Source of the DNA: an uncultured virus (IMG/VR IMGVR_UViG_3300030099_006786)
Lineage: Duplodnaviria; Heunggongvirae; Uroviricota; Caudoviricetes
Virus record (IMG/VR): IMGVR_UViG_3300030099_006786
Length of the DNA: 64,000 nucleotides
Reading direction: 5' to 3' (one strand)
The position numbers were made by a program, and so were the translations under genes. This document shows positions 2,743 to 53,260 of the stretch, in pieces (positions within the stretch are counted from its first letter, which is position 1; each line of letters starts with the position of its first letter). The notes beneath the pieces were generated by a model, which ran no database searches, was not told the DNA's origin, and saw only the letters and a program-made list of their open reading frames with translations.

Positions 2743-3849
2743 AGAACGATCGTTTTTATAAAGGTAAGTGTTTTGATGCGACAACAACTTGCAGATCGCG
2801 ACCTGTACCTCGGACGTTATCAACGGTTCTCGCAAAGGTTTCGCCACCATTAGAACTCTCGTAGATATCCCCGCCTTCTCCCACAATCATCCATGTGAAA
2901 CCATCTGTGGCAATATCACGTATTTCAATGCCGGGGCTGAATGTTGGGTTTAATAAATTACTTGTTGTTGTGCCGCTAATATCAAGTGTAGCAATTGCTT
3001 CAATTTTGTTAGAGACAATAACCACCCTACCATTTGCAGCAGCTATGCTGGCTCTTTTATCGGGCGTATTAACGTTATCCTTATTTGCAGGCTTTTGAAT
3101 GCCTAAATTACGCTCGGCACTCCAAGTGGTGAGATCGGAGTCGGCCGCTGATCTGGCAAACAAATTAGTCTCTCCGGTTTTAGTATATGTCACAACCCAT
3201 GTTGCACCAGTATAAGCTACGCCATTTATTTGCTCGGCGGTGAAAGGTGTTGAAGAAGAGAATGATGCGCCATCATCAGTGCTAATTAATAATCTGCCTT
3301 CTTGTCCTGTCACAAATTTTCCACTGCCATTACCTGCTATTGATAAAATTGGATCACCACTGTCATTTGGCAAAGTAATTTCACTAAAAGATGAAGCGCC
3401 ATCGGTACTGCGATAAACATGCCCGTTTCGTCGTCCAACCATCCATACACCCGATGTAGAGTTTGTTGAATCATTAGACCACGTTACGGCATCACAAAAT
3501 TGTTGGCCACCTCCCACCAAATTAAGCCCAGTCCACTGAACACCATCGGTGATATCATCAGAACTAATTGCAAGCTCGCCCGGTGTTTCACTAGAAGATT
3601 GCGAAAAAACATATATACCATTCCCATTGCCATCTTTTCCATAAGCACCGTCGAGTGATGCTGAATTACCGGGGCTTTTATCATAAAATGTCCACGAGGC
3701 TCTATTGGTGTTGGCTGCATAGCCAATGTCACCCGTGCCAGAAGCCTCTCCAATAACCCAGTAATCAGCTGTAGGCCTAGGTGCAGGAAGGGTAAATTTA
3801 TATGTCATAATTCATGTTCTCCATAATCTTATATAATTAGAACGATCGT
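2743..3849. repeat. 11 bp direct repeat AGAACGATCGT at 2743-2753 and 3839-3849 flanking the beta-propeller gene
   Basis: Two exact copies read directly; both contain the palindrome ACGATCGT. Confidence 0.7.
2756..3808 (-). CDS. BNR/Asp-box beta-propeller protein (sialidase-like fold), possibly virion-associated
   Basis: Asp-box motifs YRSTDGASSF, LISTDDGASF, YESSNGGETF; rich in Gly/Ser/Thr/Trp. Confidence 0.7.
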   Translation of the reverse strand: MTYKFTLPAPRPTADYWVIGEASGTGDIGYAANTNRASWTFYDKSPGNSASLDGAYGKDGNGNGIYVFSQSSSETPGELAISSDDITDGVQWTGLNLVGGGQQFCDAVTWSNDSTNSTSGVWMVGRRNGHVYRSTDGASSFSEITLPNDSGDPILSIAGNGSGKFVTGQEGRLLISTDDGASFSSSTPFTAEQINGVAYTGATWVVTYTKTGETNLFARSAADSDLTTWSAERNLGIQKPANKDNVNTPDKRASIAAANGRVVIVSNKIEAIATLDISGTTTSNLLNPTFSPGIEIRDIATDGFTWMIVGEGGDIYESSNGGETFARTVDNVRGTGRDLQVVVASKHLPL

Positions 3850-3906: not shown

Positions 3907-4170
3907 TCACTCTGAAATTGTTTCAGTAGTGGTTGTTGTCTCAGTTGAATTACCTGTGTTTTCATTGGTTGTGGTAGTAGTTTCAGAAACTTCGACTGTA
4001 TTTGTGGTTGCCTCAACCTCAACTGTTTCGGTGACAGTGCTAGCTTCACTAACTTCAGCCACCGGTGGCTCAACGGTACAAGTTCCGTAAGTAGTCGCTA
4101 CAACAAGTGCTCCAGCAACAAAACTAACTTGAACCTTCCATCGAGCTAGTTGTGATTTTAACCATTCCAT
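3907..4170 (-). CDS. Small membrane-anchored protein with Thr/Glu-rich tail
   Basis: Start moved to ATG 4170 (SD AAGGAG). Hydrophobic segment VQVSFVAGALVVATTYGTC, then low-complexity T/E tail. Confidence 0.65.
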   Translation of the reverse strand: MEWLKSQLARWKVQVSFVAGALVVATTYGTCTVEPPVAEVSEASTVTETVEVEATTNTVEVSETTTTTNENTGNSTETTTTTETISE

Positions 4171-4233
4171 AACATTCTCCTTTTCCGTATAGAATATAGT
4201 GGCACCCAATTTTGCCGGGGTGCCATCGGCCTA

Positions 4234-5004
4234 CTAAGTTCCAGTCATCAAGTCATTAAATGCCTTGTCAACATCGCTGGCACCATTAGCATAATGAGTG
4301 CTCTCAGATGAGCGCTCTTCTGCAGAAGCCGAACCAGCCATTTGTTCGTCTAAGATAGCGTCAATTTGCTCTGGGGTGAGGCGTTCAAACAAGCTATCAA
4401 AGTCAGGCATGTTATCTAACATTCCGGGGATAGACTCTTGGTCTTCCAAGAGTGGCGATGTATTTCGGCGCATTTTTAAATTAGTCTGCGGGTATGCCCC
4501 GGGACGATTTGGCTTAGTATACGTTAGCGTGATATCTGTACCTTCCTTAATGTCGGTAATGTCGCCATACTCAGGGTCAAGAATATAGCCAAGCAGAAGC
4601 TCGTAAGCTTGCTTGCCATAGCCATATACCTTAATTCCATCAGCTTCATTGCCGCGCAATACGACTGGCGAGAAGTATCGGGTACGCACAAAAAGTGACT
4701 TTGCCAGCTTTTTGCTTTCCTCATCATTGTTGTCAACACCCTCGCGCCAAAGCGTTGAAGCGAAGTCACAAATTGGACAGCGCTCATTAAAATTACGCTT
4801 TGAGCACATGATACCACCCTTATGATCTCCCACGTTATAGTGGAAGAAAAACTCTTTCAACGGATCGCCATCGCTCGTTGGTACGATCCGAATATCTTGG
4901 TCACCTTCATCTGGCTTAAACCAGATAGACGGGCCATCATTTCCATTTCCATCGCCACGAAGTGCGGCGAGCTTCTTTCTCATTAGTTCCATATTAATAG
5001 ACAT
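4234..5004 (-). CDS. Single-stranded DNA-binding protein (T4 gp32-like)
   Basis: WFKP...IRIVP, H...C...CPIC zinc ligands, RYFSPV, YGYGK, YGDITDIKEGTDITL, acidic C-terminus (DVDKAFNDLM). Confidence 0.88.
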   Translation of the reverse strand: MSINMELMRKKLAALRGDGNGNDGPSIWFKPDEGDQDIRIVPTSDGDPLKEFFFHYNVGDHKGGIMCSKRNFNERCPICDFASTLWREGVDNNDEESKKLAKSLFVRTRYFSPVVLRGNEADGIKVYGYGKQAYELLLGYILDPEYGDITDIKEGTDITLTYTKPNRPGAYPQTNLKMRRNTSPLLEDQESIPGMLDNMPDFDSLFERLTPEQIDAILDEQMAGSASAEERSSESTHYANGASDVDKAFNDLMTGT

Positions 5005-5055
5005 ATTTTTCTCCTTTTTTTGTTAATAAAGTATATCAAGCGTTCCTTGACATCT

Positions 5056-5084
5056 AATGTATCACTCTTGATCTACCTTGTCAA
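5056..5084 (-). promoter_or_regulatory. sigma70-like promoter of the SSB gene, inside the 3' end of the upstream gene
   Basis: TTGACA (5084-5079), 17 nt spacer, TG-n-TACATT (5061-5056). Confidence 0.65.
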
Positions 5085-5922
5085 GAGTTTTTTGAATTGC
5101 GTTAGTGTGGGCAACGCAGAACCCAAAATCTTCATCGTATGGAGATTCGTAAATCGCATACGTTATATTTTTAAAAGCATTTTTCGGTTTTTGTTTTAAC
5201 TTTTCGATAATTCTTTGATGTAATCCGCCATCCTTTTCTAGTTTTTCCTGAGATATGCAGAAATAATAACACACGTCCCGGCTCATGTCAAGATCAAAAA
5301 ACCATTTTTCTTCAACTTTGTTGGTGTCAAGTCTACCTAGAGAGCGTATTCTTTGTACGTCAGAAGGCTTACTTAGGTTGCCAATAATAGGCTGTGTGTG
5401 GTCAAACAAATTCTTGTAATGCACACTATAATAAATAGTCTGGTTAATAGTTTCAAAGTATTTTTTAATTGGTACATTTCCTATTGTTTCTTCTAAGATC
5501 GGATTACTGAAAATTGTTATTGAGTTAATCAAACCCGAACGTGCATATTCCTGTAAGATACCAAAAACTGCTCTTTCCTGAAGTCGAGAATCACCTATTA
5601 ATAATTCAGTATCTGGTCTAATATAGAATAAATCTATTTTAGTGTGTTTAATTTGTTCTAAAATCCCCAGTGTCATCACTGCGCTTTTGCTAGAGCCACA
5701 AACAAATGCCTGCACATTGTTGCTAATTCCTTTGAAGAACTTTGACAGCTTAGGAATGTTTTTTTCGTAATCCTCTATTTCATCATATTTTTTAAGCTTA
5801 TATTGGCCACCAGACGTCTTTGAAAACTGATTAGACAATTGATAAAGTTTGTATTCCTTATTGCCAGCAAACTGACCAACGATATTTGAACCAGCAGTCC
5901 CTATTCCAACTAATGATATCAA
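5062..5922 (-). CDS. Divergent tubulin/FtsZ-fold protein with degenerate GTPase motifs
   Basis: N-terminal T1 loop LVGIGTAGSNI. The GGGTG(S/T)G signature position reads CGSSKSA. T5-like YIRP and T6-like IFSN present. TTG start overlaps the polymerase stop codon. Confidence 0.7.
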   Translation of the reverse strand: MISLVGIGTAGSNIVGQFAGNKEYKLYQLSNQFSKTSGGQYKLKKYDEIEDYEKNIPKLSKFFKGISNNVQAFVCGSSKSAVMTLGILEQIKHTKIDLFYIRPDTELLIGDSRLQERAVFGILQEYARSGLINSITIFSNPILEETIGNVPIKKYFETINQTIYYSVHYKNLFDHTQPIIGNLSKPSDVQRIRSLGRLDTNKVEEKWFFDLDMSRDVCYYFCISQEKLEKDGGLHQRIIEKLKQKPKNAFKNITYAIYESPYDEDFGFCVAHTNAIQKTLDKVDQE

Positions 5923-7106
5923 AGCTTAAGCCCTCGAAGTTCTAAATAATTTTGACCAGCACCCAAATTGCACACAAAATTACCAAGTTTTGTTTTTTCA
6001 AATATTTCTTTAATTTCAGGCACCAATTCCCTATCCTCATTACTCAAATCAATAACAATCTCATCATGAACAATGTGAGATATAAAGCTTTTTTTATCTG
6101 ATAGAAATTTATCGATTTCTATTGCGCGTTCTATTACAATATCCGAAGTTGTACTTTGTATGATGTAGTTAAATGCTCGACGTGCATCAATTTTGATTTT
6201 TCGATCAAATGGCGTATTAATGTAGTCGCCATCATACCAATCGTCAAGTACTTTTTCTCGATTATAATAATTTGTTGATATAATTCTTGACTCTGGATTA
6301 TAAAGCCACGAAAAGAATAGCGTTTTAGCTTCTTCTCTGTAAATATCTGAGCGCTTAATTACATTATCCATATTCCATTCATGAATATCACCGGATGGCT
6401 GTTCTTGGCCACTTAGACCAAGAAGTGTTCTAATTTCTGCACCATTATAATCAAGTGACAAAAACCAATCATTAGTTGGTTTAATAAGTTTTCTATATTC
6501 TTTTTTCATGGTTAAAATTGGAAATGTATCCGGTCTGGTTGTGAACCTACCTGTTGCTGTTCCAAAAATATTATAATCAACATGTGGTGATGTAGCTAAA
6601 ATCTTTTGAACATTGTTGCGATTTATTGAATTAACAAATAAGTGCCTACAATCTTCATTATTAATCAATAAATTTTGAAACTTGATCTTATGGACAAGCT
6701 TGTAAGCAGCGTCTAAGTGATCATAATTTTTGGGTTTTTCAAAATTCTCAAATACATGCCTTGTAATTTTGTTTCTAATCTCACAAAATTCTAATAGGAA
6801 ATCGTGGGGAACAAGATCGAAAAAACAAAAATTTCTCAGATCTACTTTACCAATTTTAAAAGACTTAATAAATGCACGGAATTTTTTTTGAGCCGTGTCT
6901 AATTCTTCTCTAAGATGCTCTGGGCAAACTTCGGCCAATGACTTACCACCACTATATAGCCATGCATATTCGATACTATCGTCGGAAATTGAACCCGTAA
7001 ACTTCCATGTCCTTGTAAGGCCTTCAGGAATATCATCAAAGTTCAACTTACCAGACGTATATACGCCCACACATTCTGTTTTGTCATCTAATGTTTGAAA
7101 ATACAC
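5919..7106 (-). CDS. polA: Compact family A DNA polymerase (palm/fingers), no recognisable 3'-5' exonuclease
   Basis: TATGRFT, motif A SLDYNGAEIR, motif B REEAKTLFFSWLY, AFNYIIQST, motif C IVHDEIV. Confidence 0.88.
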   Translation of the reverse strand: MYFQTLDDKTECVGVYTSGKLNFDDIPEGLTRTWKFTGSISDDSIEYAWLYSGGKSLAEVCPEHLREELDTAQKKFRAFIKSFKIGKVDLRNFCFFDLVPHDFLLEFCEIRNKITRHVFENFEKPKNYDHLDAAYKLVHKIKFQNLLINNEDCRHLFVNSINRNNVQKILATSPHVDYNIFGTATGRFTTRPDTFPILTMKKEYRKLIKPTNDWFLSLDYNGAEIRTLLGLSGQEQPSGDIHEWNMDNVIKRSDIYREEAKTLFFSWLYNPESRIISTNYYNREKVLDDWYDGDYINTPFDRKIKIDARRAFNYIIQSTTSDIVIERAIEIDKFLSDKKSFISHIVHDEIVIDLSNEDRELVPEIKEIFEKTKLGNFVCNLGAGQNYLELRGLKL

Positions 7107-7121
7107 TGGTGCCTCAACTAA

Positions 7122-7150
7122 ATTATATCATTTCTTACGCTGATTGTCAA
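7122..7150 (-). promoter_or_regulatory. Consensus sigma70 promoter of the polA-tubulin operon
   Basis: Perfect TTGACA (7150-7145), 17 nt spacer, TG-a-TATAAT (7127-7122). Confidence 0.85.
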
Positions 7151-18207: not shown

Positions 18208-21200
18208 TTAGTATGTTGAAAAATCTGCATCAGTTCTTGTAATAACAAAGTCAAGTGCAATAAACTCGATTGCGCGAGCCGGCTTGATGTAGACCTTGGC
18301 ATACAAAACGTTTTGATCGATAAGATCGGCGGTCGTTGTGGTGTTGTCCAATTTAACAAGATATTCTGAAATACCTAAGTTAGTTTGTACACCTCTGAGG
18401 AAATCTTCGGTTTGATTTCTGAATCTATTCCATGTATCCTCTACGTTTTGGTCGAAAAGGATACCATTGGCAATTAATCTAACTTTCTTCTTGACGTAAA
18501 TCAACATTCTTCTAACGTTAATTCTGTCAAGCGCTGATGGATCGGCTAACAAGGTCTTTTGGCCGAAGACCACAATACCCTCTTGAGTAAAGTTAGCAAT
18601 TGGGTTAATATCGACTTCGTAAAGTTCATCACGGTCATCTCTGTTAAGTTGCTGAGTAACGCCCCCAACTTGAAGATTAATTTGGTTTTTACTAATTCCA
18701 CCGCGGTTAAAGCCTGCAGGAGCAAACCAAACTTGGTCTGTACTGGCGTCTGAACGACCCATGGCTCCGAGACCCACAACTGATGGTGGAAGGTATACGG
18801 TCGCGGCTGTGCGCGTGTCGGTAATGTATACCCACGGATAGTAGCATGCAGCGAAAGATGAGTCAAGCTGGCGCGATTTTATGTTGCTAACTGCAGTGGC
18901 CACGCTCTTAGGAGTTCTAGTGACTTTACTATTGGAATTTTCAGTGGCTGGAACATAGCCGCCCTCAACATCAATAATCGCCAGAACATCTTGACGTTCT
19001 TCAGCAGTTCTGATAACTTCATCGGTAATAGTAGTTTCCGTAATACCCGGAATTGTAAGAATGTTGGCCTCTGTAACTTCCGCATCTTCGACTGTCTTAA
19101 GAGCAGTGCGAAGACTATAATTAGCATAATAGCTTGCCTTAGTGGTACCAGCGAGATCCGAGTTGTTAAATGGCTCTTTTTCGTTGATTCTGAGACCATC
19201 AAACCCACCATAAAGAGGCAAGGAGAAATTCTTCGCGCCGATGCCAACTGTAGACTTCCAGCCTTCTGAACCCACCGCACTTCGAGATGTTCCAGCTTTT
19301 CTAGAGCCTGATGTATATGTCGCTGAGTCAGCGGTACCAACAATATCGTCAAGAGTAAAGTAGTATGAAATTTCTGATGCATCACCGGGCGTAAATGAAT
19401 CAGATTGAAGACCAAATGGTAGCGGACGTAAATAGTCAACAACGCCCGGGTCAAGCTGGTCGCTTCCTACCTTAAGTGCTGAGAAGCCAAAATAGGCGCC
19501 CTTAGTTTTAGTGGTAGAATCTCCAGCATCTGAATTAGTGCTTCGAAGTCTGGTTGAAGGAAATTGAATTGACGCAGTGTAATCAACACCTGTGGCTGAT
19601 GCAAACTCCTTGGCTCTTAACAAAGACTCTTGATCAGAGGATAGCCAACTAAACTTTGTACGAAATTGAACCATGGTATTAACTTGTTCAGATGCTTGAA
19701 CAAGCGTATCTTTGGCAGCAAGATCATAAGCAAACATCTGATTTGATCCAGATATAGTTGCAAAGTCTCTCGGCTTAAGTGGGCCTTCAAATCCAAATGG
19801 TACGGCACCCTTATTAATCGGAGTAGCGTCAGAATACATTTCTACACGAATATATCTGGAGCGATTAGGAAACTCTCCGTATCTAACTAATCTTTCATTA
19901 GCCTTATCATACTCGTAGTAATAATCACCAATAACTCGACCAATAAACTTATTAGAGTTTCTATCTAAATTGCATCTTTGGAAATATTCAAGACGACCTT
20001 CAGTTGCAAGTTTGCTATCTCGACTACCAATTGTTCTAACTTCGACATCAAAAGTCGGGTATCCACCCTCATATGATGCATCAGTAATGTTAGAGATTGA
20101 AATTTTGATATTTTTCTGAATATACTCACCAGCATCAGTCGCACAGAATCTAAATAATCTTTCTGCTCTTTCACCATTAGCCGGATCGAAAGTAGCTCTA
20201 TCCGCACTAAGATCTTGTGAGAAAATATAGCCAGTTTTTGCGTATTGATAATCCGACAACATTCTGTGGTGGCCCTCGGCTGTAGCGAGTGCGGAACCAG
20301 ATTGTAAGCACATAATTGCTCCGTATTGCGCACCAGCACCTGCAGCGCCGACAATTCGAGCAACTGCTTCTTCGTAAGTTTCACCTAAGAAATATTTTTG
20401 TTGATTAGATGAACCAACAAGATTAGCATTTGTTGCTACTGGATCAACGTTCAACACGTTGCGAATGTAATTGGTTGAGCCTTTAGTAAAATCAACAACT
20501 GCTTTTTTATAAACAGTTCCAGATTGATCTCTAAATTCTAATGCAAACGTATTTGAAGTCGCACCAGCACCACCAAGCGTAGTATTCAGTGACGATATAA
20601 GCGTGTAAGCACTACTTGTTAAAGTTGTTCCATAATCCTCATTTGCTAAAATAGAACCAGAGACTCTTACGTTACCTTCAGAAAGATAGAAAATAGCAGC
20701 TAGTGTACCGCTCATATTGTAGCCAACACCAGAGCCGCCAGCGCCACCGCGTTGTGGCCCAACTGATGCAGATTGGAAAACAAACAATCCCCAAGCTCCA
20801 CCGTTGGCGGACTCAACAGTATTCGGATATGCGGCTGCTCCACCAGTAGTTTCTGTGTACCATCCGGCTTTTGCGGCATCCGTGCTAGCGCCAGAAGGAC
20901 CCATACCTAATAAGCGAACAGTGGTAGCAGGTGACGCTCCTGACTTTAAGTAACTTTCTGCTGCGTATCCTGCATATGTTGGGCCTTGATAATTTCCAAG
21001 CCTGTAAACATCTGCTTTTCCGCCAGTTCTTGATTTTAATACCTCTGAGGCTGGTTTACCGGTTCCATCAATTGGGTTTCCAAAAAATGTAGTCCAATCG
21101 CTCCAGTTATCCACACTAACAGGGCGCATTGCGGGCCCATGTTCCGTGCGGCCAATGATAATCGGGCCGTCTTCAGGACGGGGGGTATCTCTAATTGATT

Positions 21201-21258
21201 CATCCACTTCTGCGATAAAAACGCCGGGGGATAAAAATTTGAATTTTTCAACTGCCAT
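18208..21258 (-). CDS. Contractile tail sheath protein (gp18-like) with large insertions
   Basis: FLSPGVFIAEVD, YYPWV, WFAPAGFNRG, INPIANF, VVFGQKTL, SALDRINVRRML, IKPARAIEFIALDF. Confidence 0.96.
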   Translation of the reverse strand: MAVEKFKFLSPGVFIAEVDESIRDTPRPEDGPIIIGRTEHGPAMRPVSVDNWSDWTTFFGNPIDGTGKPASEVLKSRTGGKADVYRLGNYQGPTYAGYAAESYLKSGASPATTVRLLGMGPSGASTDAAKAGWYTETTGGAAAYPNTVESANGGAWGLFVFQSASVGPQRGGAGGSGVGYNMSGTLAAIFYLSEGNVRVSGSILANEDYGTTLTSSAYTLISSLNTTLGGAGATSNTFALEFRDQSGTVYKKAVVDFTKGSTNYIRNVLNVDPVATNANLVGSSNQQKYFLGETYEEAVARIVGAAGAGAQYGAIMCLQSGSALATAEGHHRMLSDYQYAKTGYIFSQDLSADRATFDPANGERAERLFRFCATDAGEYIQKNIKISISNITDASYEGGYPTFDVEVRTIGSRDSKLATEGRLEYFQRCNLDRNSNKFIGRVIGDYYYEYDKANERLVRYGEFPNRSRYIRVEMYSDATPINKGAVPFGFEGPLKPRDFATISGSNQMFAYDLAAKDTLVQASEQVNTMVQFRTKFSWLSSDQESLLRAKEFASATGVDYTASIQFPSTRLRSTNSDAGDSTTKTKGAYFGFSALKVGSDQLDPGVVDYLRPLPFGLQSDSFTPGDASEISYYFTLDDIVGTADSATYTSGSRKAGTSRSAVGSEGWKSTVGIGAKNFSLPLYGGFDGLRINEKEPFNNSDLAGTTKASYYANYSLRTALKTVEDAEVTEANILTIPGITETTITDEVIRTAEERQDVLAIIDVEGGYVPATENSNSKVTRTPKSVATAVSNIKSRQLDSSFAACYYPWVYITDTRTAATVYLPPSVVGLGAMGRSDASTDQVWFAPAGFNRGGISKNQINLQVGGVTQQLNRDDRDELYEVDINPIANFTQEGIVVFGQKTLLADPSALDRINVRRMLIYVKKKVRLIANGILFDQNVEDTWNRFRNQTEDFLRGVQTNLGISEYLVKLDNTTTTADLIDQNVLYAKVYIKPARAIEFIALDFVITRTDADFSTY

Positions 21259-25253: not shown

Positions 25254-27095
25254 TTAGCTAGTTGCACCCGATGAGCCGTTAAGACCACGACACACGACTA
25301 ATCCGTACATATCTGGACGAACCATCTTCTTCGCGTAACGGGTCATAACACCCTTACGTGGCACGAAGTCTTCTGGTCCGAAGATCGTAGGAGTAGTTTG
25401 CAGTGGTACATACGGTGCGTACACATATCCGCTTTCAAGGAAAGAGGAACCGCGACGTCCAACGAGGATTACGTTGCGAAGGAAGTAAGGATCAACAATT
25501 ACATCAAACTTCTTGCTCAACGAACCAACGTTGACTGCACCGACCGAACCGGTTTCATCATCGTGAGTGACAGAAGCACGGAATCCAGCAGTGAACTCAA
25601 GAATGTTGGCAACTTCAGGTCCGCAGACGATAAAGTTAGCGCCGCCACGAAGAGTCTTGCGGTGAATTTGTGCAGAAACATCGTTGATGGTTTCAACGAG
25701 AGTTTCGTACCACTCGGAAACAGTACCGGTGAAGTCAGGAGCAGCAGAGCTAGCGCCAACTTCTTCACCAGTAGTGCGGTCAAGGAATTGTCCCGGGTTA
25801 CGCGACCAGTAGTAAGTACCGGCAGTTGCACCGTTAACGAGGTCTGCAAGGATCTCGCGGTCAATTTCAAGAGCGATTTGTTCCGAAAGGATGCTAGTCA
25901 ACTCAACTTCAGCATCAAGGTTGTGGTAAGCGTTAAGGTCTTGACCTAACTCTGGAGTCCACTTAGCCTTGAGCTTCTTGGTGATAGCGGTCACGGCGAT
26001 CGAATCGACCTTGATGTCGATTTCTGGAATCGCTTCTTCTGCTTCAAGCGCGAACGGGCTTGCGCCTACAACAGCACCAAGGGTATCTGCCTTAGTAATA
26101 TTATCACGCTGTGGGAAAGAACACGTAAGAGATGGAATTGGCATCTCATCGGTAGCACCACCACCACGGCCAGTAGCATTGTTGTTAGCAACTCGAATTT
26201 CGTCGGTACCTGAACCAGTCAATCCAACATAAGTCAGAAGAATTTGGGCGTTATCAGCGGTATCGGCCGCATCTGGGTCCAAGCGCGTAAGTCGACGAAC
26301 CAACTGAGGAACAGTGCTTTGAAGACAACCACTTAATGCGGTCGCTGCGTTACTTGCTGTAATTGCAGCCAAATTCTCTCGATCTAATTGAGTTAATCCA
26401 GAGGCACTAATTGCAGCAATACAAACAGCATGAGTCGCTGCTGTTCCGTTGCGAGTAATCTTCGAAAGAATATCAGGATCGTATTGAAGAAGCTTCTTTT
26501 GTGCTTCAGTCATGGAAGACGTAAGCGAGAAAGAAGTCTTAATAATTCCCTTAGTTCCTGCGGAAGCGGTTGCGGCTGCATAGCCATAACCACGCGCGGT
26601 TGCGGTGCGAGGACCTGAAAGGTCTTCGGTGCGGGCACCAAGAAGATCAACACCACCGGTAACTTGTGCACCAACTTGGTTTGTACCATAAATTGACTTG
26701 TTACGGAGGTTACCTAATCTTCCATCATCAGCTTCTTGAGCACCAGCCGCATCGGGCGAGAACACGAAGTCAAGGAAGAAGATAAGTCCACTTGGAAGGC
26801 TCATGGGCTGAACGCTAACGAGATCGTTTGCAATCAATCCTGCGAATACACGACGGACAATTGGGAATGCGACGGCTGCGAAGCCCTCAACATCACCAGC
26901 GCTCATAGAGCTTTGCTCGCGAAGTAATTCTTTTGCTTGGTTTTCAAGAAGGCGAGCCATAGATTGCTTGTTGCGATCTGTATTGATTCCTTCAAGAAGT
27001 CCGGTTTTTTCCCACTTAGAGAGTAGGGCGTGACCTTCGGCACGCATATCACGGTTGACTACACCTTCGGTGAGTCTGTCGATAATACCAGCCAT
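25254..27095 (-). CDS. Major capsid protein (T4 gp23-like)
   Basis: PIVRRVF, VSVQPMSLPSGLIFFLD, KLKAKWTPELGQDLNAYH, EIDREIL, YAPYVPL, FVPRKGVMTRYA. Confidence 0.97.
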   Translation of the reverse strand: MAGIIDRLTEGVVNRDMRAEGHALLSKWEKTGLLEGINTDRNKQSMARLLENQAKELLREQSSMSAGDVEGFAAVAFPIVRRVFAGLIANDLVSVQPMSLPSGLIFFLDFVFSPDAAGAQEADDGRLGNLRNKSIYGTNQVGAQVTGGVDLLGARTEDLSGPRTATARGYGYAAATASAGTKGIIKTSFSLTSSMTEAQKKLLQYDPDILSKITRNGTAATHAVCIAAISASGLTQLDRENLAAITASNAATALSGCLQSTVPQLVRRLTRLDPDAADTADNAQILLTYVGLTGSGTDEIRVANNNATGRGGGATDEMPIPSLTCSFPQRDNITKADTLGAVVGASPFALEAEEAIPEIDIKVDSIAVTAITKKLKAKWTPELGQDLNAYHNLDAEVELTSILSEQIALEIDREILADLVNGATAGTYYWSRNPGQFLDRTTGEEVGASSAAPDFTGTVSEWYETLVETINDVSAQIHRKTLRGGANFIVCGPEVANILEFTAGFRASVTHDDETGSVGAVNVGSLSKKFDVIVDPYFLRNVILVGRRGSSFLESGYVYAPYVPLQTTPTIFGPEDFVPRKGVMTRYAKKMVRPDMYGLVVCRGLNGSSGATS

Positions 27096-37846: not shown

Positions 37847-38660
37847 CTGAGTAAATTTCCTTAACTAATTTTTGAGTCTTGAGGACCGTCAATAGTAATG
37901 ACTCGCTTACAACTTCTTTAGAATAATTATCAAGTTTGGAAATGACACTATCAGTTTTATTAATCATAGATGCATCCGATTTAATTTCATCAGTTGTTTT
38001 TGCTTCTTGTAATTTAACTTTAAGTCTTCCAATTTCTTCGTTTAAGAAAATCTTCAATTCGAGAGAATTGTCGACAAACGAAGTAATATAATGCATCAAT
38101 AGCTCTTTTTGTTCTTTTAATAAACTGTCGCCATACTTTTCATTGAACTTCTTAACAAACGAATTGTAAACAATATTATCAATTGGCACCATTTCCTCTA
38201 CTTCTTCTTCGGCGGTTGACATAAAATCAGTAAGTTGAGATTCAAGCATAATTTGTTGTTTAGGATTGGAGCCATTAAACATTTGAAATATAGTTGCTAA
38301 AGTTTTGTAATTGGGAACAAAGTTATTGAATATATCAGGAGATAAATCTTTATTAATATCGTTTATCAAGCTTGTTTGTTGTTTAAATAAATTAGCTGGG
38401 TCGATAAGCATCTTAGATAATTTTGCTTCTTTAATAATCTTTTCACTTGTTTCAGAATCTAGGCCACGTGTCTCATATAACGAGCGGTAGCAATCTAAAT
38501 CTCTTTTTAATTCAGAAAATGGTGCAAAGTAGTTTTTTATAATCTTAACAATCTTTTGTTTTTTTTCTAAATCATTTTTTACAATTGCTTCTGTGGCTTC
38601 TTTGATAAGTGCTTCATAAACAAACGCGGTATTTCTTTTCTTATTATGTTTAATTTTCAT
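37830..38660 (-). CDS. Conserved hypothetical head-region protein
   Basis: KHNKKRNTAFVYEAL, VPNYKTLATI, KFNEKY; overlaps the portal gene. Confidence 0.65.
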   Translation of the reverse strand: MKIKHNKKRNTAFVYEALIKEATEAIVKNDLEKKQKIVKIIKNYFAPFSELKRDLDCYRSLYETRGLDSETSEKIIKEAKLSKMLIDPANLFKQQTSLINDINKDLSPDIFNNFVPNYKTLATIFQMFNGSNPKQQIMLESQLTDFMSTAEEEVEEMVPIDNIVYNSFVKKFNEKYGDSLLKEQKELLMHYITSFVDNSLELKIFLNEEIGRLKVKLQEAKTTDEIKSDASMINKTDSVISKLDNYSKEVVSESLLLTVLKTQKLVKEIYSDVSSS

Positions 38661-40662
38661 TTTTTTGCTCCGTCATAAGATTCTTATCTTTTAATTCTAA
38701 TTCTTCAACCAAAGACCTCATAGATTCATTAATTGAAATTAAATTGTCTTCCTCTTGTTGCTCACTCAATGAGTAAGTAGGTTCCTCACTTGGATAAATA
38801 CTTTCTGAAGTGGGTACAAATCCTTTTCCGAGGCTTTTTAGGCCATCGGCATAGCCGGGAAATACATTTCTAGATGTACTTTTTGTCTTTTCAGAATTAT
38901 ATTGTGATTGATTTGAACGTCGGCGAGCACCAGCATCACGTCGATCTACTCTCTTAGGATTATAAACCTTGCCTTTTGAGCGGGGTGTTACGCGGGGCGC
39001 AAATCTAGAGCCCGGCGGGGCTGTCAGTAATGCTGAATCATCTTCTCCGCCAGCTGGTTCTTCTGCTCCTGCTTCTGCATCGCCAGTATCCAATGCGCCT
39101 TCAAGATCGTCACCCAAGCCAGCATCAAGATCGCCACCCAAGTCGCCGCCTAGGTCGCCACCTAAATCGCCACCGAGACCACCTGTTTCTCCTGCTGCAG
39201 CTTGTTCAGCGACTTGTTGAAGATTAGCATCTTGTTTTCTATCATAGAACATTTCACGTTGATTACGTACAAATTCTTCATGAGACATACCAAAAATGTT
39301 TTCTGTAACCCATCTGCGTGAGAAATACCCTTCAGTTGCGGCTGCAGCAATATCAAACTTAGTTTTCCAATGCTCAATTTCTTGCATCTCAGCAATCTTA
39401 GATGGGTTATTCAAAGAAAGTTTAAAGTTAATCAAGTCGTCGCCGCGGAAACCAAGAGTATAAAGATGGATAATTCCAATCTTTTCTAGTTCGTGGATAA
39501 CTGTGCGTTGTAATCTTTGGATAGTTCTAGCAAATCGAATGTCTTTTTGTGCTAAAGTTGTTTTATCTTCGGTAGCACCTTCACCCATCGTTAAATAAGA
39601 TTGTGGAATTTTCAATGCTGAAAATAACTTGTCGCGTAGATATTTGATGTCATCGATTGCTGTAATATTTTGAGCACCGGCAAGCGATTCAATCGAGGTT
39701 GCTGAACCAGCACGAACAGGCAAGAAATAATCTTCTTCAATTGACATTGGATTATATCGTAAATCAATTCTACCAGAATCGGGATCTACAATGGTGTGTC
39801 TCTTAAGTTGAGTAACAATCTTTTGCATATACTGTTCAACATCTTGAGGTGGAATTGCACCTACATCAATCTTGAAAACACGACGTTCAGATGAACGAAT
39901 GACACGATATGCCATCATAGCATCTTCCATCAAAGTAAGTTGGCGCCAGATTCTTCTAGCCGCCTCAAGCACCGAAGAACCATATGGATTGTATTTGTCG
40001 TTACCTAAAACTCGAAAATGCGCAATTTGCCAGTTTTCAAAAGTCATCCCGGCAGAATTCCATTGGTATTGAATATAATTTGGGTTTGTTGCGTCTAAGC
40101 CTTCGAGTCTTTCAACTTCCTGCATTGGTAATGAAATAACAGATTGAACACCGTGCTTATCATCAATGTCTAAATACAAAACAAAGTCTCCGTATTTACA
40201 CAGTGTCCGACACCATCCAAATAAATTATATTCAATATTTAAAACGTTTCTGTAAAGAAGATCTAATACAGCTTTGATTTCTTCGTTTGTACATTTGATG
40301 TTTAGCATTGGACGCAAATCAGAAAACGTTGTCATCTCATCTGCATATATGTCCAGTGACGATGCAATCTCGGGCATGTATTCCATTTGATCAAAATCAA
40401 CATAACGTTCTGATCTTCTTTGATTTGCAATTGCATTAGCTGCAATATTATCTAAAGGGTTATAGCTTTGCTTTTTAAATTGTTGTCCAGAAGGGTTTCT
40501 GAATCTTGAAGAAAACTTATCTAAATGTTGTCTTCTAATTTTTCTACCAGACTGAGAGCGGTAGTTAATGATAGGTCCCGAAAATAATCTAGTCAGAGCC
40601 TTAAATAAGTCTGACTGTCGGTTTATTGGGTTTCTTCCTTGTTTTGGGTTTCTTGGTGCCAT
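38650..40662 (-). CDS. Portal protein (T4 gp20-like)
   Basis: PEIASSLDIYADE, LMEDAMMAYR, ERRVFKIDVG, EEDYFLP, DDIKYLRDKLFSALKIP, DIRFARTIQRLQ. Confidence 0.95.
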   Translation of the reverse strand: MAPRNPKQGRNPINRQSDLFKALTRLFSGPIINYRSQSGRKIRRQHLDKFSSRFRNPSGQQFKKQSYNPLDNIAANAIANQRRSERYVDFDQMEYMPEIASSLDIYADEMTTFSDLRPMLNIKCTNEEIKAVLDLLYRNVLNIEYNLFGWCRTLCKYGDFVLYLDIDDKHGVQSVISLPMQEVERLEGLDATNPNYIQYQWNSAGMTFENWQIAHFRVLGNDKYNPYGSSVLEAARRIWRQLTLMEDAMMAYRVIRSSERRVFKIDVGAIPPQDVEQYMQKIVTQLKRHTIVDPDSGRIDLRYNPMSIEEDYFLPVRAGSATSIESLAGAQNITAIDDIKYLRDKLFSALKIPQSYLTMGEGATEDKTTLAQKDIRFARTIQRLQRTVIHELEKIGIIHLYTLGFRGDDLINFKLSLNNPSKIAEMQEIEHWKTKFDIAAAATEGYFSRRWVTENIFGMSHEEFVRNQREMFYDRKQDANLQQVAEQAAAGETGGLGGDLGGDLGGDLGGDLDAGLGDDLEGALDTGDAEAGAEEPAGGEDDSALLTAPPGSRFAPRVTPRSKGKVYNPKRVDRRDAGARRRSNQSQYNSEKTKSTSRNVFPGYADGLKSLGKGFVPTSESIYPSEEPTYSLSEQQEEDNLISINESMRSLVEELELKDKNLMTEQKNEN
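39100..39182. repeat. (GGDL)n low-complexity repeat in the portal C-terminal tail
   Basis: GGLGGDLGGDLGGDLGGDLDAGLGDDL; about 12 nt period. Confidence 0.8.
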
Positions 40663-40670
40663 TTAAAATC

Positions 40671-42254
40671 TCACTTTATAATCCACATGAATTCTTCATA
40701 TGTTTTTTTAGCTTCACTTATTTTATCAAGAATGTTATCTTTTTTGTAGCCTTCTTGACCTTTAATTTGTGTATTCATTGTTGTTCTACTTGTGTAAATT
40801 GCATCAACAAAAGCTTTCTGATAATTTAAATCTCTAGCGTTTGATTGTATTGCTGTGTCCCTAACCCAACATGCTATTGCCAATGACATTATAAGGTCAT
40901 CGTTATAGCCCTTCATGGCTTGAGGCTTACCGTTTCTCCAAATAAAAGTTTTCATCTCGTTAATTGTACGAGAAGAATATACCGTAATTAGTTTATTTCT
41001 GATAAACTCTTCTAATTTCGCAACGATAAGGGGTCTAGTCTTCATTGTAGTAGTAAAACCCGGCACTGCTGAGTTTGTGTATTCTGCTTGATACTGTTCA
41101 ATGTATTGGTGTGTTGATTTCACCGAGAAATACAAATTTGGATATGCGTGCTCAGTTAGCTTGTCTAGTACTGAATAACCAATGTTATTATTTTCGACCA
41201 CAAGCATAGCATTACCAAACTCTCTGCCAACTTGATTTAACATATTGGCATACATATCTAAAGTTGGCTTACCTTGGTATTCGCCTACTATCTGAAGTGT
41301 TTCAAGTTTGATTATGTGAAATGCTGAGTTATCGGCACCATCACCTCTTGCAACATCAGCAACCATCAAATAATTGCATTCAGGATCAAATTCTTCCCAA
41401 ATCCAAAAATTGCGGTCAAAACCAGTTCTGTATTTTGGTTCTGCCACGTTCTTCAATAGCCATTCCATATCTTCAGGATCAATAACAGTTTCGCCTGAAG
41501 TATTGAAGTTGCACTCAAGCTCTTGAGCAATTTGTCTTTTAGACATGTTTTTAGTTTCTTTTTGATACCATTCTTCATCGCGATCAGGGTGAACGTCCCA
41601 TGCTAAAGTTGTTATATTAAAATTATTACCGCCCGATTCTGCATCTGCGCAGGTTTTATGAAACCAGTTACCAACTCCATTTGGAGTTGACAGCGCAATA
41701 CAGCGACCACCTGTAGACAGCGTAGGATAAAGACCAGTCCACAACTCTTCTAAGCCCTCAATATGTGCAGCCTCATCTAATACTAAAAGTGACAGTGCTT
41801 CAGAACGACCAGCATCGCCCGAAGTAGAAGCTGCTTTGATAGATGAGCCGTTAGACAATTCAAAAGAAGTTCTGTTATCGACTGAGATTTCTGCAATCTT
41901 AATCCAGTCTGGTAAATTTCTCATGATGCTCTTGACTTTTTTAACCAAGTTGCCTGCTGTGGCAAACTTTGTAGCCATAACAAGTATGGACTTATCACGA
42001 TGAAAAAGCATCATCCACACAACATAGCCAGCAGTTATTGTGGATATTCCAAGCTGTCTTGCTTTTAATATAACATTAAATCGATAATCATTAAAATCTT
42101 TCAATAAATCATCTTGGAATTCATAAGTATCAAATGGAATTAGTCCATGCATTGGGTGTGATATTCTTGCATAGTTTTTAAGAAAATATGCGGGATCTCT
42201 CCCGCATTTTAATATTTCTTTAACTTGCTGTTTTTTATCTAATTGAAAACTCAT
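40671..42254 (-). CDS. Terminase large subunit (gp17-like)
   Basis: KARQLGIST (Walker A), LVLDEAA (Walker B), STPNG, ADVARGDGAD, VENN, DDLIMS. Confidence 0.96.
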   Translation of the reverse strand: MSFQLDKKQQVKEILKCGRDPAYFLKNYARISHPMHGLIPFDTYEFQDDLLKDFNDYRFNVILKARQLGISTITAGYVVWMMLFHRDKSILVMATKFATAGNLVKKVKSIMRNLPDWIKIAEISVDNRTSFELSNGSSIKAASTSGDAGRSEALSLLVLDEAAHIEGLEELWTGLYPTLSTGGRCIALSTPNGVGNWFHKTCADAESGGNNFNITTLAWDVHPDRDEEWYQKETKNMSKRQIAQELECNFNTSGETVIDPEDMEWLLKNVAEPKYRTGFDRNFWIWEEFDPECNYLMVADVARGDGADNSAFHIIKLETLQIVGEYQGKPTLDMYANMLNQVGREFGNAMLVVENNNIGYSVLDKLTEHAYPNLYFSVKSTHQYIEQYQAEYTNSAVPGFTTTMKTRPLIVAKLEEFIRNKLITVYSSRTINEMKTFIWRNGKPQAMKGYNDDLIMSLAIACWVRDTAIQSNARDLNYQKAFVDAIYTSRTTMNTQIKGQEGYKKDNILDKISEAKKTYEEFMWIIK

Positions 42255-47775: not shown

Positions 47776-48915
47776 TTATGTTGCTAATCCATTCATACTT
47801 AGTATCGCAATCAAACCGGGCACATTCTTTCTGACATAAACGCCAGAGAAAAGTGTCTCGCATCGACCGCCGACATAAGCGATTGCCGACTCAATATTCT
47901 TGCTGACCTTGGGGTCTGCCACCATCTCTTCTGACACAACCAACACTAATGAGCCTGCAGCGGCCTTACCCTTGGGTGGAGGGCATGCGGAACGATTCAT
48001 GCAATTGTGAAGGATCACCGATCCAAGCTTTCCAGTATTTGGATCCTTTATCATAGTCGAGCCCATAAAGGCTCTGCCGTTATTGCCCAAGCATGTTTCC
48101 AGATCTTTACTATCAAAAGATTGGATCGGTGAATCCTCTGTAGAGAGTTTTAAAACTTGGGCTAACGATTTTGCAAATTGAGTGTTTGCGACAGGGTACA
48201 TGCCAAGCATACCAATTCTGCCGCGAAGTAAGCGTGTGGCACGTTCATTATCTAAAATGATGTGCGGGTGACGAGATACGTCATTGGCCAATGTCAGTGC
48301 ATTGCGAGCGATTGTAGGGTTAAGATTTTCTTGTGCTGTTGGCCAAGAAACTACATAAACGACTTTACCGCTTGACTGAACAGAGCGCATGTAACGCTCA
48401 AAGACAGGATGGAGAGCGGTAACAGAACTACCGGTGCCACCACCACCACCAGCAAAGACGAATAACCAATCCACTTTACCGAGTTTGATGCGCAAAGCAT
48501 CTTCAACAATTGCACCATTTTGACTTAATACCTCTTTTCCATAGTCTACGTTTTTTCCAATTCCATCAGAATCGGGTATAAGGACAACGTGATCCTCTTC
48601 AACATTTTTAGGAATGTCTTTGCCTGTTGAGTTGACAAGCAATGTTTTATTGAAACCAAGCTCAATAAATGCATTTACCATTTTGTTGCCTCCACCGCCG
48701 ACACCAACAAAACCGACATTAATTGAAGAGGGAGCCGTATTTTCTGGGAGTAAATCTTCATCAGAGTATTCCATCTGTAATCCAAAATCCTCAACCATTC
48801 CGAAATCTTCAGCGTCTACCTGTTCGTGGTAGTGGTCTTTCTCCTGATTGAAGGAGGGTGGTGGTTCCGCGGGAGGCAGAAAATCAAATTCATTATTGTC
48901 ATTATCATTAGACAT
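47776..48915 (-). CDS. Tubulin/FtsZ-family GTPase (PhuZ/TubZ/CetZ-like) with acidic N-terminal extension
   Basis: T1 GVGGGGNK, T2 NSTGKD, T3 GIGKN, T4 signature AGGGGGTGS, T6 LDNE, T7 FDSKDL. Confidence 0.92.
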   Translation of the reverse strand: MSNDNDNNEFDFLPPAEPPPSFNQEKDHYHEQVDAEDFGMVEDFGLQMEYSDEDLLPENTAPSSINVGFVGVGGGGNKMVNAFIELGFNKTLLVNSTGKDIPKNVEEDHVVLIPDSDGIGKNVDYGKEVLSQNGAIVEDALRIKLGKVDWLFVFAGGGGGTGSSVTALHPVFERYMRSVQSSGKVVYVVSWPTAQENLNPTIARNALTLANDVSRHPHIILDNERATRLLRGRIGMLGMYPVANTQFAKSLAQVLKLSTEDSPIQSFDSKDLETCLGNNGRAFMGSTMIKDPNTGKLGSVILHNCMNRSACPPPKGKAAAGSLVLVVSEEMVADPKVSKNIESAIAYVGGRCETLFSGVYVRKNVPGLIAILSMNGLAT

Positions 48916-49322: not shown

Positions 49323-50153
49323 TTATTCAGCTGCTTTCTTTTCTTCTCCGCCGCGTGGAGCATATGGCGGATTGACATCAACAAAGCCTTTTTGAAGTAA
49401 ACCAATCGCATTGCGAATGTCCTTCTTATCAATAATTGGCATATCAATTCTTTCCGGTGCACCCTCTGGAGTATTCATTGTCGCTGTGCTTAAATTGTCA
49501 GCCATTTTTTTAGCTGCTATTTGTATTCCTTCTTCTCCCTCGGTGCCCGAAAATTTTGCAATCGCTTGACGCACCTTGTCTACGGACATAAACTTATTAC
49601 CTTTTTGATATAAATCAGTCAGAACAGTAGCAATACCTTGTGCATTAAAATCAGAAAAACTACCAGACCCTTCTTTACCTTTAAGTTCTCCAAATTTTCC
49701 TACAGTGATAGCATTGAGAACCGGAATAAGTTGTGCAGCAGGGAAATTAACAGCATAGCCACCAATTTCTGCATTTGGGTCTACCATGTAGCTAGATATC
49801 CATCTGTGGTGTCCGTCCATAATTCTCTTATCATTTGAAATAAATGCGCCTAAGTTACCACCTGCCTTTCCTTTAAGAATCGCCTGAAGCGCCATTCCAA
49901 CAGCTTGACCAATTCTCATTGTTGATTGTGATGGTCCTAGCTCAGATACTTTAAATGTAGCTCCATTAACAGGAATCTTATCATCTTCTCCTGAAGGATC
50001 AGCATCCTTGACACCAAGAGAAACATCAGCTTGTGCATCTTGTGGATTCTGTGCAACAACTGACAGCTTAGTTGGAAATCTTCTTGGATCTAGCTTAGAC
50101 GGATCCGCGTCTTCAGTAAGGAATTTATTCCAGTTCTCTAATAGTTTTTTCAT
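49323..50153 (-). CDS. ParB/sulfiredoxin-like N-terminal domain protein with 'MKKLLENW' leader
   Basis: ELGPSQS and FISNDKRIMDGHHRW (ParB/Srx GxxR motif). Confidence 0.65.
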   Translation of the reverse strand: MKKLLENWNKFLTEDADPSKLDPRRFPTKLSVVAQNPQDAQADVSLGVKDADPSGEDDKIPVNGATFKVSELGPSQSTMRIGQAVGMALQAILKGKAGGNLGAFISNDKRIMDGHHRWISSYMVDPNAEIGGYAVNFPAAQLIPVLNAITVGKFGELKGKEGSGSFSDFNAQGIATVLTDLYQKGNKFMSVDKVRQAIAKFSGTEGEEGIQIAAKKMADNLSTATMNTPEGAPERIDMPIIDKKDIRNAIGLLQKGFVDVNPPYAPRGGEEKKAAE

Positions 50154-53100: not shown

Positions 53101-53260
53101 GTGATATTTGAGTTTTTGTGTGAGCGATATCTCCGCAATGAATAATATAGTCTACCTCTTGTTTTCGTAATTCTTCATAAAGCTGCTCGAAAACAATTCG
53201 GTATTCATAGTGATACTTTAAATTTTTGATGTGAGTATCCGCTATATGAGCAAATTTCAC
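50153..53260 (-). CDS. Fused SbcD(Mre11)-SbcC(Rad50) nuclease/ATPase (gp47+gp46-like)
   Basis: Phosphoesterase motifs HIADTH, GDIAH, GNHD, LYHG, LGDIH; Walker A GKNFSGKS, coiled coil, signature ASGAE, Walker B FILDEP, ISH. Confidence 0.93.
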   Translation of the reverse strand: MKFAHIADTHIKNLKYHYEYRIVFEQLYEELRKQEVDYIIHCGDIAHTKTQISPEFVEMCSDFFRNLAALAPTYIILGNHDGNLKNSSRQDALTPIVEALDLPDLHLLKESGETHINDKFCLNVLSVFDRENWIKPTNNDKVNIALYHGSISNCKTDINWTMTFGEDELSIFDDFDFSMLGDIHRRQFLDKEGRVWYAGSTVQQNHGETNDKGILIWEIESKNDWNIEPIVLKNPKPFITIELTRKGRMPKNISIPSGARLRLVSNNNLPINTMKRAVDIAKHRFSPESITFLNRAAGERGDVTELTENLKRENLRDINVQEELISEYLKDYQVDSPTMEKIYDLNRKYKKMVEEKEDISRNVNWKLTNFKFDNLFNYGEDNNVNFDELNGITGIFGKNFSGKSSIIDAVLWTLFNTTSKNERKNLNVINQNKEFCEGSITIQVGNKHYYVTRKAEKYIKRLKGEETLEAKTDLNFECYDEATGETISLNGLTRNNTDANIRKHFGSVDDFLVSSMASQHGALSFIDEGSTRRKEIIAKFLDLEIFDKKFKLSKDESVETKALLKKLEDKDYNSEIEEAELELDTCRTEISEHESRAVKSEQKLEEASAALISVTEKMSSMPTEAINIMTVKQELKSCESKVFLLSQSIIDEKERLSGEYDRLRKIRNLMSSLDYNDLLHKKETINDLNKNLENLTNLLDSATKKEKLLDGIPCGTNYPTCKFIRDAHVSVATMPEINLDIENLNTKLSDLSPDLVNDHIQKYLSLDTKKQETEYLIKDLKISLERNNVALERLNNNIKEYRQKEISYQENKEAIENLELLIKEKTQHETNIERLKRKISGDKSKALDLYKRVGSLEQRAKNLREQQKELADLQQEFAAHDLFMRCMHPNGIAYDIIKKKIPVINSEIAKVLANIVDFEVFFESNGNKFDIFIKHPKHEPRPIEMASGAEKTMASMAIRLSLLTVSSLPKGDVFILDEPGTALDEENMEGFIRILELIKVYFKNVLLISHLDSLKDCVDMQIAIEKKAGFARVNQ

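Follow-up and report, generated by a model that had tools for sequence, protein, structure and literature searches.

Why should the gene for a tubulin-like protein be lodged between a DNA polymerase gene and the gene for a gp32-type single-strand DNA-binding protein (SSB) in a phage genome? The question is raised by a stretch of 64,000 nucleotides (nt) from an uncultured marine phage (IMG/VR record IMGVR_UViG_3300030099_006786), called the window here, in which every gene lies on the minus strand. An earlier note on this DNA had described a degenerate tubulin tightly coupled to polA and followed by an SSB gene. The protein in question is 286 amino acids (aa) long. Its predicted structure shows it to be a real, full-length and minimal member of the tubulin/FtsZ superfamily, from which the parts needed for polymer-activated GTP hydrolysis appear to be missing.

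No match to the 286-aa protein was found in Pfam, PHROGs, NCBIfam, or in sequence or profile searches of the PDB. The hidden Markov model of the Tubulin/FtsZ GTPase domain (PF00091) did not detect it, and in the related genomes G002 and G003 found only another, canonical gene. BLASTP of both tubulin-fold proteins of the window returned no matches. The structure of the 286-aa protein was predicted with AlphaFold2 from an alignment of 85 family members (mean pairwise identity 34%), taken from a 50%-identity library and grouped by identity clustering, and the model had a pLDDT of 95.7 and a pTM of 0.92. Foldseek comparison with the PDB placed FtsZ, TubZ and CetZ at the top (E 3.5e-12 to 1e-10, TMq 0.62-0.72). 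A Foldseek-independent scan of 48,161 chains gave scores of 22.6 and 21.7 for TubZ and 22.2 for CetZ2, with eukaryotic, Asgard, Odin and Btub tubulins at 19.6-21.0, FtsZ at 20.5, the phage c-st TubZ at 19.3 and PhuZ at 16.6-17.4; the first unrelated fold, a short-chain dehydrogenase, scored 8.8. The structural match covered residues 1-286, indicating that both domains of the fold are present, and the model contains the two-domain arrangement of the superfamily, with a Rossmann-like nucleotide-binding domain, the core helix H7 and a C-terminal domain. A comparison with predicted structures of viruses brought up canonical viral FtsZ, PhuZ and tubulin entries and nothing else, at no more than 12% identity, and in the ESM Atlas the family was present only as viral 'hypothetical protein' clusters. 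An hhalign comparison with the phage's own canonical FtsZ-like protein placed the T1 and T4 loops on those of that protein; the alignment spanned the stretch from T1 to T4 only and was weak (E 0.07). A further possible lead in the ESM Atlas, with a score of 0.88, is a Tubulin/FtsZ cluster of Nitrososphaerota with a length of 283 aa.

We examined the nucleotide pocket and the catalytic loops using the loop names and roles known from FtsZ and tubulin (T1, T4, T7, H7, H8), and counted residue conservation over the 85 family sequences. The T1 loop (GxGxxG) is retained, and reads GIGTAGSN at residues 6-13 of the window protein, aligned to GVGGGG of the canonical FtsZ-like protein; its glycines are G6 (71/85), G8 (84/85) and G11 (67/85). 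The tubulin signature of the T4 loop is [SAG]GGTG[SA]G. Where tubulins read GGGTGSG, the window protein has CGSSKSA at 75-81, G76 alone is conserved in this region (82/85), and a GG[GS] remnant is seen in 19 of the 85 sequences. Conservation elsewhere includes N140 (70/85), H168 (72/85), and Q124 and R128 (84/85), the latter two within the motif LQEYARSG, with further conserved positions at Y24, E50, P103/D104, S129, N160, N171, R191, G196 and Q277.

In the T7 loop of tubulins and FtsZ (NxDxx[DE]), the acidic residue or residues trigger GTP hydrolysis in the next subunit. H7 spans residues 152-174 of the model, and the segment that would correspond to T7 reads NLFDHTQP (171-178), in which N171 is found in 72/85 sequences and no acidic column is conserved. 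The family consensus after H7 is N-V-F-x-N/H-T/S-x-P, and 36/85 sequences have neither D nor E at 172-178. No helix is predicted before the strand at 192-199, where FtsZ has H8. The last strand ends at residue 273 and the protein stops 13 residues further, at 286, with no C-terminal tail. The charge and isoelectric point of the protein gave no functional hint. The word 'degenerate' in the earlier note was therefore apt, since the T4 signature is replaced and the acidic residues after H7 are not conserved. The most economical reading of the model and motifs is that nucleotide may still be held, while the apparatus for polymer-activated hydrolysis is missing.

The gene is embedded in the following arrangement of open reading frames (ORFs) and promoter-like sites.

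7150-7122, minus strand: sigma70-type promoter, TTGACA-17-TATAAT with a TGn extended -10, 12/12 matches
7106-5919, minus strand: family-A polymerase of the published divPolA1 type, 395 aa, GTG start (ORF and profile comparison)
5922-5919, minus strand: TTGA, the 4 nt formed by the polymerase TGA stop and the TTG start of the tubulin-like gene
5922-5062, minus strand: tubulin/FtsZ-fold protein, 286 aa, TTG start, tail-less (ORF and predicted structure)
5084-5056, minus strand: second promoter-like site, TTGACA-17-TACATT with TGn, 10/12 matches, within the final codons of the tubulin-like gene and ahead of gp32
5004-4234, minus strand: gp32-type SSB (PF08804, phrog_1192)

The perfect sigma70 promoter ahead of polA, the overlapping stop and start codons and the gp32-like SSB downstream, all read from the letters in the earlier note, were recovered at these positions. 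The promoter at 7150-7122 is the sole exact match in the 64-kilobase (kb) window, in which shuffles predict 0.05, and it is embedded in the final codons of the upstream 422-aa ORF. It is likely to be the start of an early replication transcription unit. The gp32 gene matched PF08804 (E 4.5e-12, 46.9 bits against a cut-off of 26.8) and phrog_1192 (E 1.9e-24). That the tubulin-like gene starts at this TTG agrees with the N-terminus typical of the family (MxxIIGLG), and relatives have ATG at the corresponding codon.

For the survey of synteny we used 160 IMG/VR loci, made up of the best 80 of 596 confirmed relatives (51-100% identity) and 80 of 589 at 31-38%. The polymerase gene lay upstream of the tubulin-like gene on the same strand in all 143 loci that contained both, and gp32 followed in 156/160, the other four loci ending 43-295 nt past the tubulin-like gene. 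The order of PolA, tubulin-like gene and gp32, for which the earlier note had proposed such a survey, is thus kept. The polymerase and tubulin-like frames overlapped in 108/143 loci, with a 4-nt overlap in 78/78 loci of the window's own clade and an overlap of any length in 30/65 of the more distant set. The junctions between the two genes were distributed as follows.

4-nt NTGA overlap: 84 loci (80 ATGA, 3 GTGA and 1 TTGA, the last in L001, a near-identical record of the window phage)
Overlap of 13-16 nt: 20 loci
Overlap of 1 nt: 4 loci
Gap of 0-30 nt: 9 loci
Gap of 42 nt: 1 locus
Gap of 283-336 nt: 17 loci
Gap of 1.1-2.6 kb: 8 loci

An ORF of about 100 aa was inserted in 17 of the 143 loci (L103:5693-6001, L111:5679-5990, L130:5652-5990 and similar). 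Three of four examined were MazG/PRA-PH-like (N-terminus KLVRDKIP...), with Pfam matches that were weak or below the cut-off, and the fourth had no match. The other inserts examined were ORFs of 355-383 aa (one with weak nucleotidyltransferase matches), one thioesterase, and ORFs of 793-850 aa without matches. The inserts in these 17 and 8 loci make the polymerase/tubulin-like junction an insertion hot-spot.

Signals for transcription and translation were compared in the same set. A promoter-like site with at least 10/12 matches was present upstream of PolA in 70/118 related loci, and within 130 nt upstream of gp32 in 119/156 loci, against 33/400 random places in each case. The sites ahead of gp32 were mostly TTGACA-17-TA.ATT, about 80 nt before the gp32 start, and the tubulin-like gene had no comparable conserved promoter unit of its own. 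By these sites, PolA and the tubulin-like gene belong in most cases to a single unit reading into gp32, and gp32 has a promoter of its own as well. The co-transcription signals thus point to an early unit that reads from divPolA1 through the tubulin-like gene to gp32, and then to UvsX, the 5'-3' exonuclease and DnaB. A purine-rich Shine-Dalgarno (SD)-like 4-mer was found at -16 to -5 of the tubulin-like start in 121/153 loci. Other near-consensus TGn sites in the window (10-11/12, minus strand) lie at 5056-5084 before gp32, 2711-2739 before UvsX, 420-447 before the gene at the window start, and 5263-5291 inside the tubulin-like gene.

Sites of the type TTGAC[AT]-17-TA...T, close to the sigma70-type consensus, are found again ahead of PolA and gp32 in the relatives. 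Homologues in public metagenome-assembled genomes (MAGs) carry the labels Flavobacteriaceae or Flavobacteriales, groups whose promoters are of another type. Contigs from two marine metatranscriptome runs (X17, X18) contain gp32 at 4036-4824, which indicates presence only, and runs X19 and X20, whose kind is uncertain, also contain gp32. One small contig (4939-5129) links the beginning of gp32 with the last part of the tubulin-like gene. Together the X17-X20 contigs cover gp32 and 4939-5258, leaving the polymerase and most of the tubulin-like gene uncovered; the lack of cover there carries no weight, and DNA carry-over is possible.

The partner across the overlap proved to be an unusual polymerase. 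Motifs A, B and C of its palm and fingers are intact, and its N-terminus holds what appears to be a much reduced relic of a 3'-5' exonuclease domain. D219, R257, K261, Y269, H347 and D348 are invariant in window-type polymerases, and a profile of 47 of these aligned with the 'DNA polymerase family A' of phage immuto over 282 columns (hhalign probability 98.2, E 2.7e-14). In the putative exonuclease remnant of the 47 divPolA1-type polymerases we also observed full or almost full conservation of C12, C61 and C94, together with D7, K9 and W34. As described in its publication (PMC11348598; Virol J 2024;21:200), divPolA1 retains the catalytic residues of the palm, has a truncated thumb and carries substitutions at the exonuclease aspartates. 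The same paper places replication genes downstream of divPolA1 and a regular polymerase near GroEL/GroES.

A polymerase of another family was found in the relatives. DnaE (PF07733, Pol III alpha) was present, as ORFs of 1142-1160 aa with E ~1e-54, in 5/5 related genomes (G002, G003 and G007-G009), four of which are 90-100% complete; there is none within the window. In G002 it (G002:C1:134029-134829) lies about 15 kb past the end of the 5'-3' exonuclease/DnaB block, outside the region of the window. Its neighbours there are GroEL, GroES, two ClpP genes, thioredoxin and an inosine monophosphate dehydrogenase (IMPDH)/GMP-reductase gene. PolB was absent from these five genomes and from the fragment G001, and each related genome had one PF00476 gene. 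DnaE is probably the main replicase. Because of the divPolA1 homology and the presence of DnaE in all five relatives, the window polymerase is, to judge from its sequence, an accessory divPolA1 and not the replicase. The polA of the earlier note is this accessory polymerase. We had also considered the mini-PolA as the sole polymerase of the phage, which is ruled out by DnaE in the five related genomes. No sliding clamp or clamp loader was found among 147 of 200 G002 ORFs (Pfam, E 1e-5), a scan that divergent genes could escape.

The slot between polymerase and gp32 is occupied differently in other lineages. By capsid protein, the nearest cultured phages are immuto phages of Flavobacterium (47.5% identity), Microcystis phage Mel-JY01 and Rhodothermus phage RM378. 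The order in phage immuto is divPolA1, ORFs of 151 and 171 aa, SSB, RecA, 5'-3' exonuclease, DnaB and ribonucleotide reductase. The two small ORFs had no similarity to the tubulin-like profile (probability <1), so that immuto has a divPolA1 without the tubulin-like gene. A 428-aa gene upstream of SSB in phage Mel-JY01 had no similarity to the polymerase profile. For another divPolA1 genome, a supplement of PMC11348598 gives IME4 and WYL_2 as the occupants of the slot, and neither tubulin nor FtsZ is mentioned in the text or the three searchable supplement files of that paper. The occurrence of divPolA1 without the tubulin-like gene, the inserts in 25/143 loci and the failure to find fusions suggest that the 286-aa protein is not an obligate polymerase subunit.

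The family is large. In a 90%-clustered collection, 1041 proteins had E <= 0.01 among 1565 candidates, all unnamed or 'hypothetical', and the 50%-identity library contained at least 525 clusters with E <= 0.001, 373 of them at or below 1e-10. It was observed solely in viral or metagenomic DNA. Neither tblastn of the 286-aa protein against 50,697 phage records nor megablast of the region gave a match, and a single-protein scan of the genomes of 185,579 prokaryote species found no close relative. No fused or longer form (>501 aa) with the tubulin-like domain was found, which is weak evidence. Literature searches, together with passages of PMC7824862, PMC9123017, PMC9871819 and PMC11348598, brought up no description of this tubulin-fold family or of a tubulin-polymerase module, in line with the earlier note, which knew of no such module. 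The tubulin-fold family is therefore undescribed as far as these searches reach, and the polymerase upstream has already been published.

The window encodes a second tubulin-fold protein.

47776-48915, minus strand: canonical FtsZ/tubulin protein, 379 aa (PF00091 E 1.8e-8; FtsZ structures E 6.6e-11)

This protein has GVGGGG, GGGGGTGS and a D..D T7 motif, carries an acidic 60-aa N-terminal extension, and had no PHROG match. Its identity to the G002 and G003 copies is 87-97%, against 56-64% for the eroded protein and other genes there. The canonical gene, or any PF00091 match, was absent from the sister-clade genomes G007, G008 and G009 (100, 95 and 90% complete), each of which has the eroded gene behind divPolA1. 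The eroded family is thus independent of the canonical phage tubulin. We considered whether the eroded protein could be a partner or regulator of the canonical one (heterodimer, cap or nucleator), in the manner of alpha/beta-tubulin. Both proteins are encoded in the window, the canonical one keeps the signature and T7 motifs, and the genes co-occur in G002 and G003. The genes are 42 kb apart, however, and the canonical gene is missing from three of three related genomes, 90-100% complete, that carry the eroded one, which makes such a partnership very improbable. As a general role of the family it is ruled out by G007-G009, and an added role within the sub-clade is possible.

What, then, might the eroded protein do? 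We tentatively favour a nucleotide-holding, non-dynamic static scaffold or tether for DNA synthesis by divPolA1, gp32 and UvsX, because the parts for polymer-activated hydrolysis are missing. Such a protein would bind nucleotide yet lack the polymer-activated GTP hydrolysis that drives the dynamics of FtsZ, TubZ and PhuZ, and, being non-hydrolysing, would serve as a static, self-associating scaffold or tether. Its part would be to organise the divPolA1/gp32/UvsX branch, whether for recombination-dependent synthesis or for repair, alongside DnaE as the main replicase, and it would not be an obligate catalytic subunit of the polymerase. Several observations weigh against this proposal. The assignment of T7 rests on the secondary structure of the model and on motif reading. 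All loci are colinear over a 1296-aa ORF, a 422-aa ORF, PolA, the tubulin-like gene, gp32, UvsX and the 5'-3' exonuclease, so that the 143 loci represent one inherited arrangement and the adjacency is not independent evidence; the context of one colinear lineage tells little beyond 'early, replication block'. In 25/143 loci, one or two other genes stand between the pair, with gaps of 283-2625 nt. The tight coupling put forward in the earlier note thus survives as a frame overlap in 108 of the 143 loci, and is weakened by these insertions and by the single colinear lineage. The tubulin-like protein also had a higher mean distance than these neighbours (1.12, compared with 0.86 for PolA, 0.62 for gp32 and 0.38 for UvsX), which fits a host-directed protein too. 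Finally, since the slot holds unrelated genes in other lineages, the tubulin-like gene could be cargo unrelated to DNA synthesis.

The overlapping frames may instead indicate a closer partnership, in which the protein would be a stoichiometric accessory subunit of divPolA1, docking on the mini-polymerase, whose thumb would be truncated and whose exonuclease would be dead, and giving it DNA grip or processivity. The overlap (108/143 loci, and 78/78 in the window clade), the SD-like element within the last codons of the polymerase, the single promoter serving both genes and the truncated thumb of divPolA1, as given in PMC11348598, would all be in keeping with this, and the lack of a clamp or clamp loader among the 147/200 G002 ORFs scanned adds weak support. 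We nevertheless consider it unlikely. Immuto has divPolA1 without the gene, and IME4 and WYL_2 are listed in the slot of another divPolA1 genome; genes intervene in the 25 loci noted above, no fused protein was found, and short overlaps are common in the window genome, where for example two ORFs upstream of the polymerase share one base at 8396. The distances of the tubulin-like protein correlated with those of gp32 (r 0.87, partial 0.51 and 0.56) and PolA (r 0.82 and 0.79, partial 0.25 and 0.30) over 72 and 51 loci, and the partial correlation with PolA was thus below that with gp32; these correlations are weak evidence, since linked neighbours have a common recombination history. The form that such a subunit might take, a GTP-loaded, non-hydrolysing eroded tubulin that supplies the missing grip of divPolA1 (perhaps with gp32) by tethering it to DNA or to a static lattice, is likewise unlikely in our judgement; if true, a cytoskeletal fold would for the first time form part of a polymerase holoenzyme.

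A more conventional role is that of a dynamic filament. PhuZ and TubZ use a C-terminal tail for filament contacts or adaptors, and genes of this type have a TubR/tubC adaptor/centromere beside them. A PhuZ/TubZ-like filament that positions or partitions replicating phage DNA, with the early operon serving for timing only, would be in line with the predicted fold, complete with both domains, and with the conservation of T1, G76, N140 and helix H7 residues. It would also agree with the characterised phage tubulins, all of which form such dynamic filaments according to PMC4244570 and PMC7824862. The acidic T7 residues are not conserved, however, the model ends at 286 without a C-terminal tail, and no TubR-like adaptor gene adjoins, the neighbours being the polymerase and gp32; a filament of this kind is therefore doubtful. 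The protein could alternatively be directed at the host, as an FtsZ mimic that, having no activating T7 face, would cap the protofilaments of host FtsZ and so halt division during infection. Parallels exist in FtsZ capping mutants and in the small proteins by which T7 and lambda inhibit FtsZ. The early sigma70-type promoter, a rate of evolution surpassed in the block by the upstream 422-aa ORF alone, the variable slot with unrelated cargo in other lineages, and the presence of bacterial FtsZ among the best Foldseek matches are compatible with such a mimic. Yet its identity to any FtsZ is 10-15%, with no sequence-level FtsZ match, and the window clade's own canonical FtsZ-like protein would be poisoned too. 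We regard this possibility as quite improbable.

The protein and its locus can be set beside several known systems. Relative to TubZ, CetZ and FtsZ (PDB 4ei7, 3m8k, 4xcq, 3zid, 4b45 and 2vaw), the 286-aa protein has 7-14% identity and no profile match, is shorter than all, has an eroded signature, and lacks conserved acidic T7 residues, H8 and the C-terminal tail; its gene lies in a polymerase/SSB operon and not in a division or partition locus. The tail and the adjoining TubR/tubC that mark TubZ/PhuZ-type systems are found neither in the protein nor at the locus. PhuZ has an acidic C-terminal tail and forms dynamic, GTPase-driven filaments. It is the most distant solved relative (PDB 3rb8, 3zbq and 9pm9), and the window phage has T4-type structural genes. 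For the pairing of a family-A polymerase with a small partner, the model is T7 gp5-thioredoxin, in which such a polymerase has recruited an unrelated small processivity protein; the fold of that partner is unrelated to the one described here, and the relatives encode their own thioredoxin elsewhere. The locus resembles that of the immuto-like phages, as far as PMC11348598 was accessible, in that the polymerase is followed by SSB, RecA/UvsX, 5'-3' exonuclease and DnaB, and in that divPolA1 is additional to a family-C polymerase found near GroEL/GroES in the relatives. Unlike phage immuto, it has the tubulin-like gene where immuto has two unrelated small ORFs.

The remaining features of the window, all of them on the minus strand, are those of the replication block downstream and of a T4-type structural block, which also includes baseplate genes.

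Downstream of gp32, minus strand: ORF of 100 aa
3808-2756, minus strand: BNR/sialidase-like repeat gene, 350 aa (weak Pfam matches)
2685-1540, minus strand: UvsX/RecA recombinase, replication block
1528-542, minus strand: 5'-3' exonuclease, replication block
Upstream of the polymerase, minus strand: ORFs of 1296 and 422 aa, ending the structural block, no family match
18208-21258, minus strand: sheath
25254-27095, minus strand: major capsid protein gp23
38650-40662, minus strand: portal
40671-42254, minus strand: large terminase

The BNR-like gene at 2756-3808, between gp32 and UvsX, was found only in L001 and, at 36% identity, in L005, and looks like a cargo gene carried within the replication block. 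A 1035-aa ORF at 50153-53260 (minus strand) fuses an SbcD/Mre11-like phosphoesterase to an SbcC/Rad50-like ATPase (Pfam, PHROG), and the two are also fused in G002. In the 194-kb genome G002, about 20 genes for making sugar nucleotides and glycans are clustered around 46-68 kb (L167:8502 to L168:11003); they encode GDP-mannose dehydratase, several epimerases, aminotransferases, and methyl-, formyl-, sulfo- and glycosyltransferases. An ORF of 3860 aa in the same genome (L166:1734-13316) includes a laminin-G-like domain.

What is new here, within the tubulin/FtsZ superfamily, is a minimal family that has neither the signature nor a tail, and whose genomic setting is also new. Tubulin and FtsZ proteins are known as dynamic, GTP-driven filaments in division, partition and the positioning of the phage nucleus. 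An abundant family of ocean phages appears to have kept the fold, lost the parts for dynamic filaments, and fixed the gene in a polymerase/SSB operon, where it forms an unnoticed component of the published divPolA1 replication block. Whether the protein acts as a scaffold, a partner of the polymerase or a poison of host FtsZ, each of these would be a new use of the tubulin/FtsZ fold.

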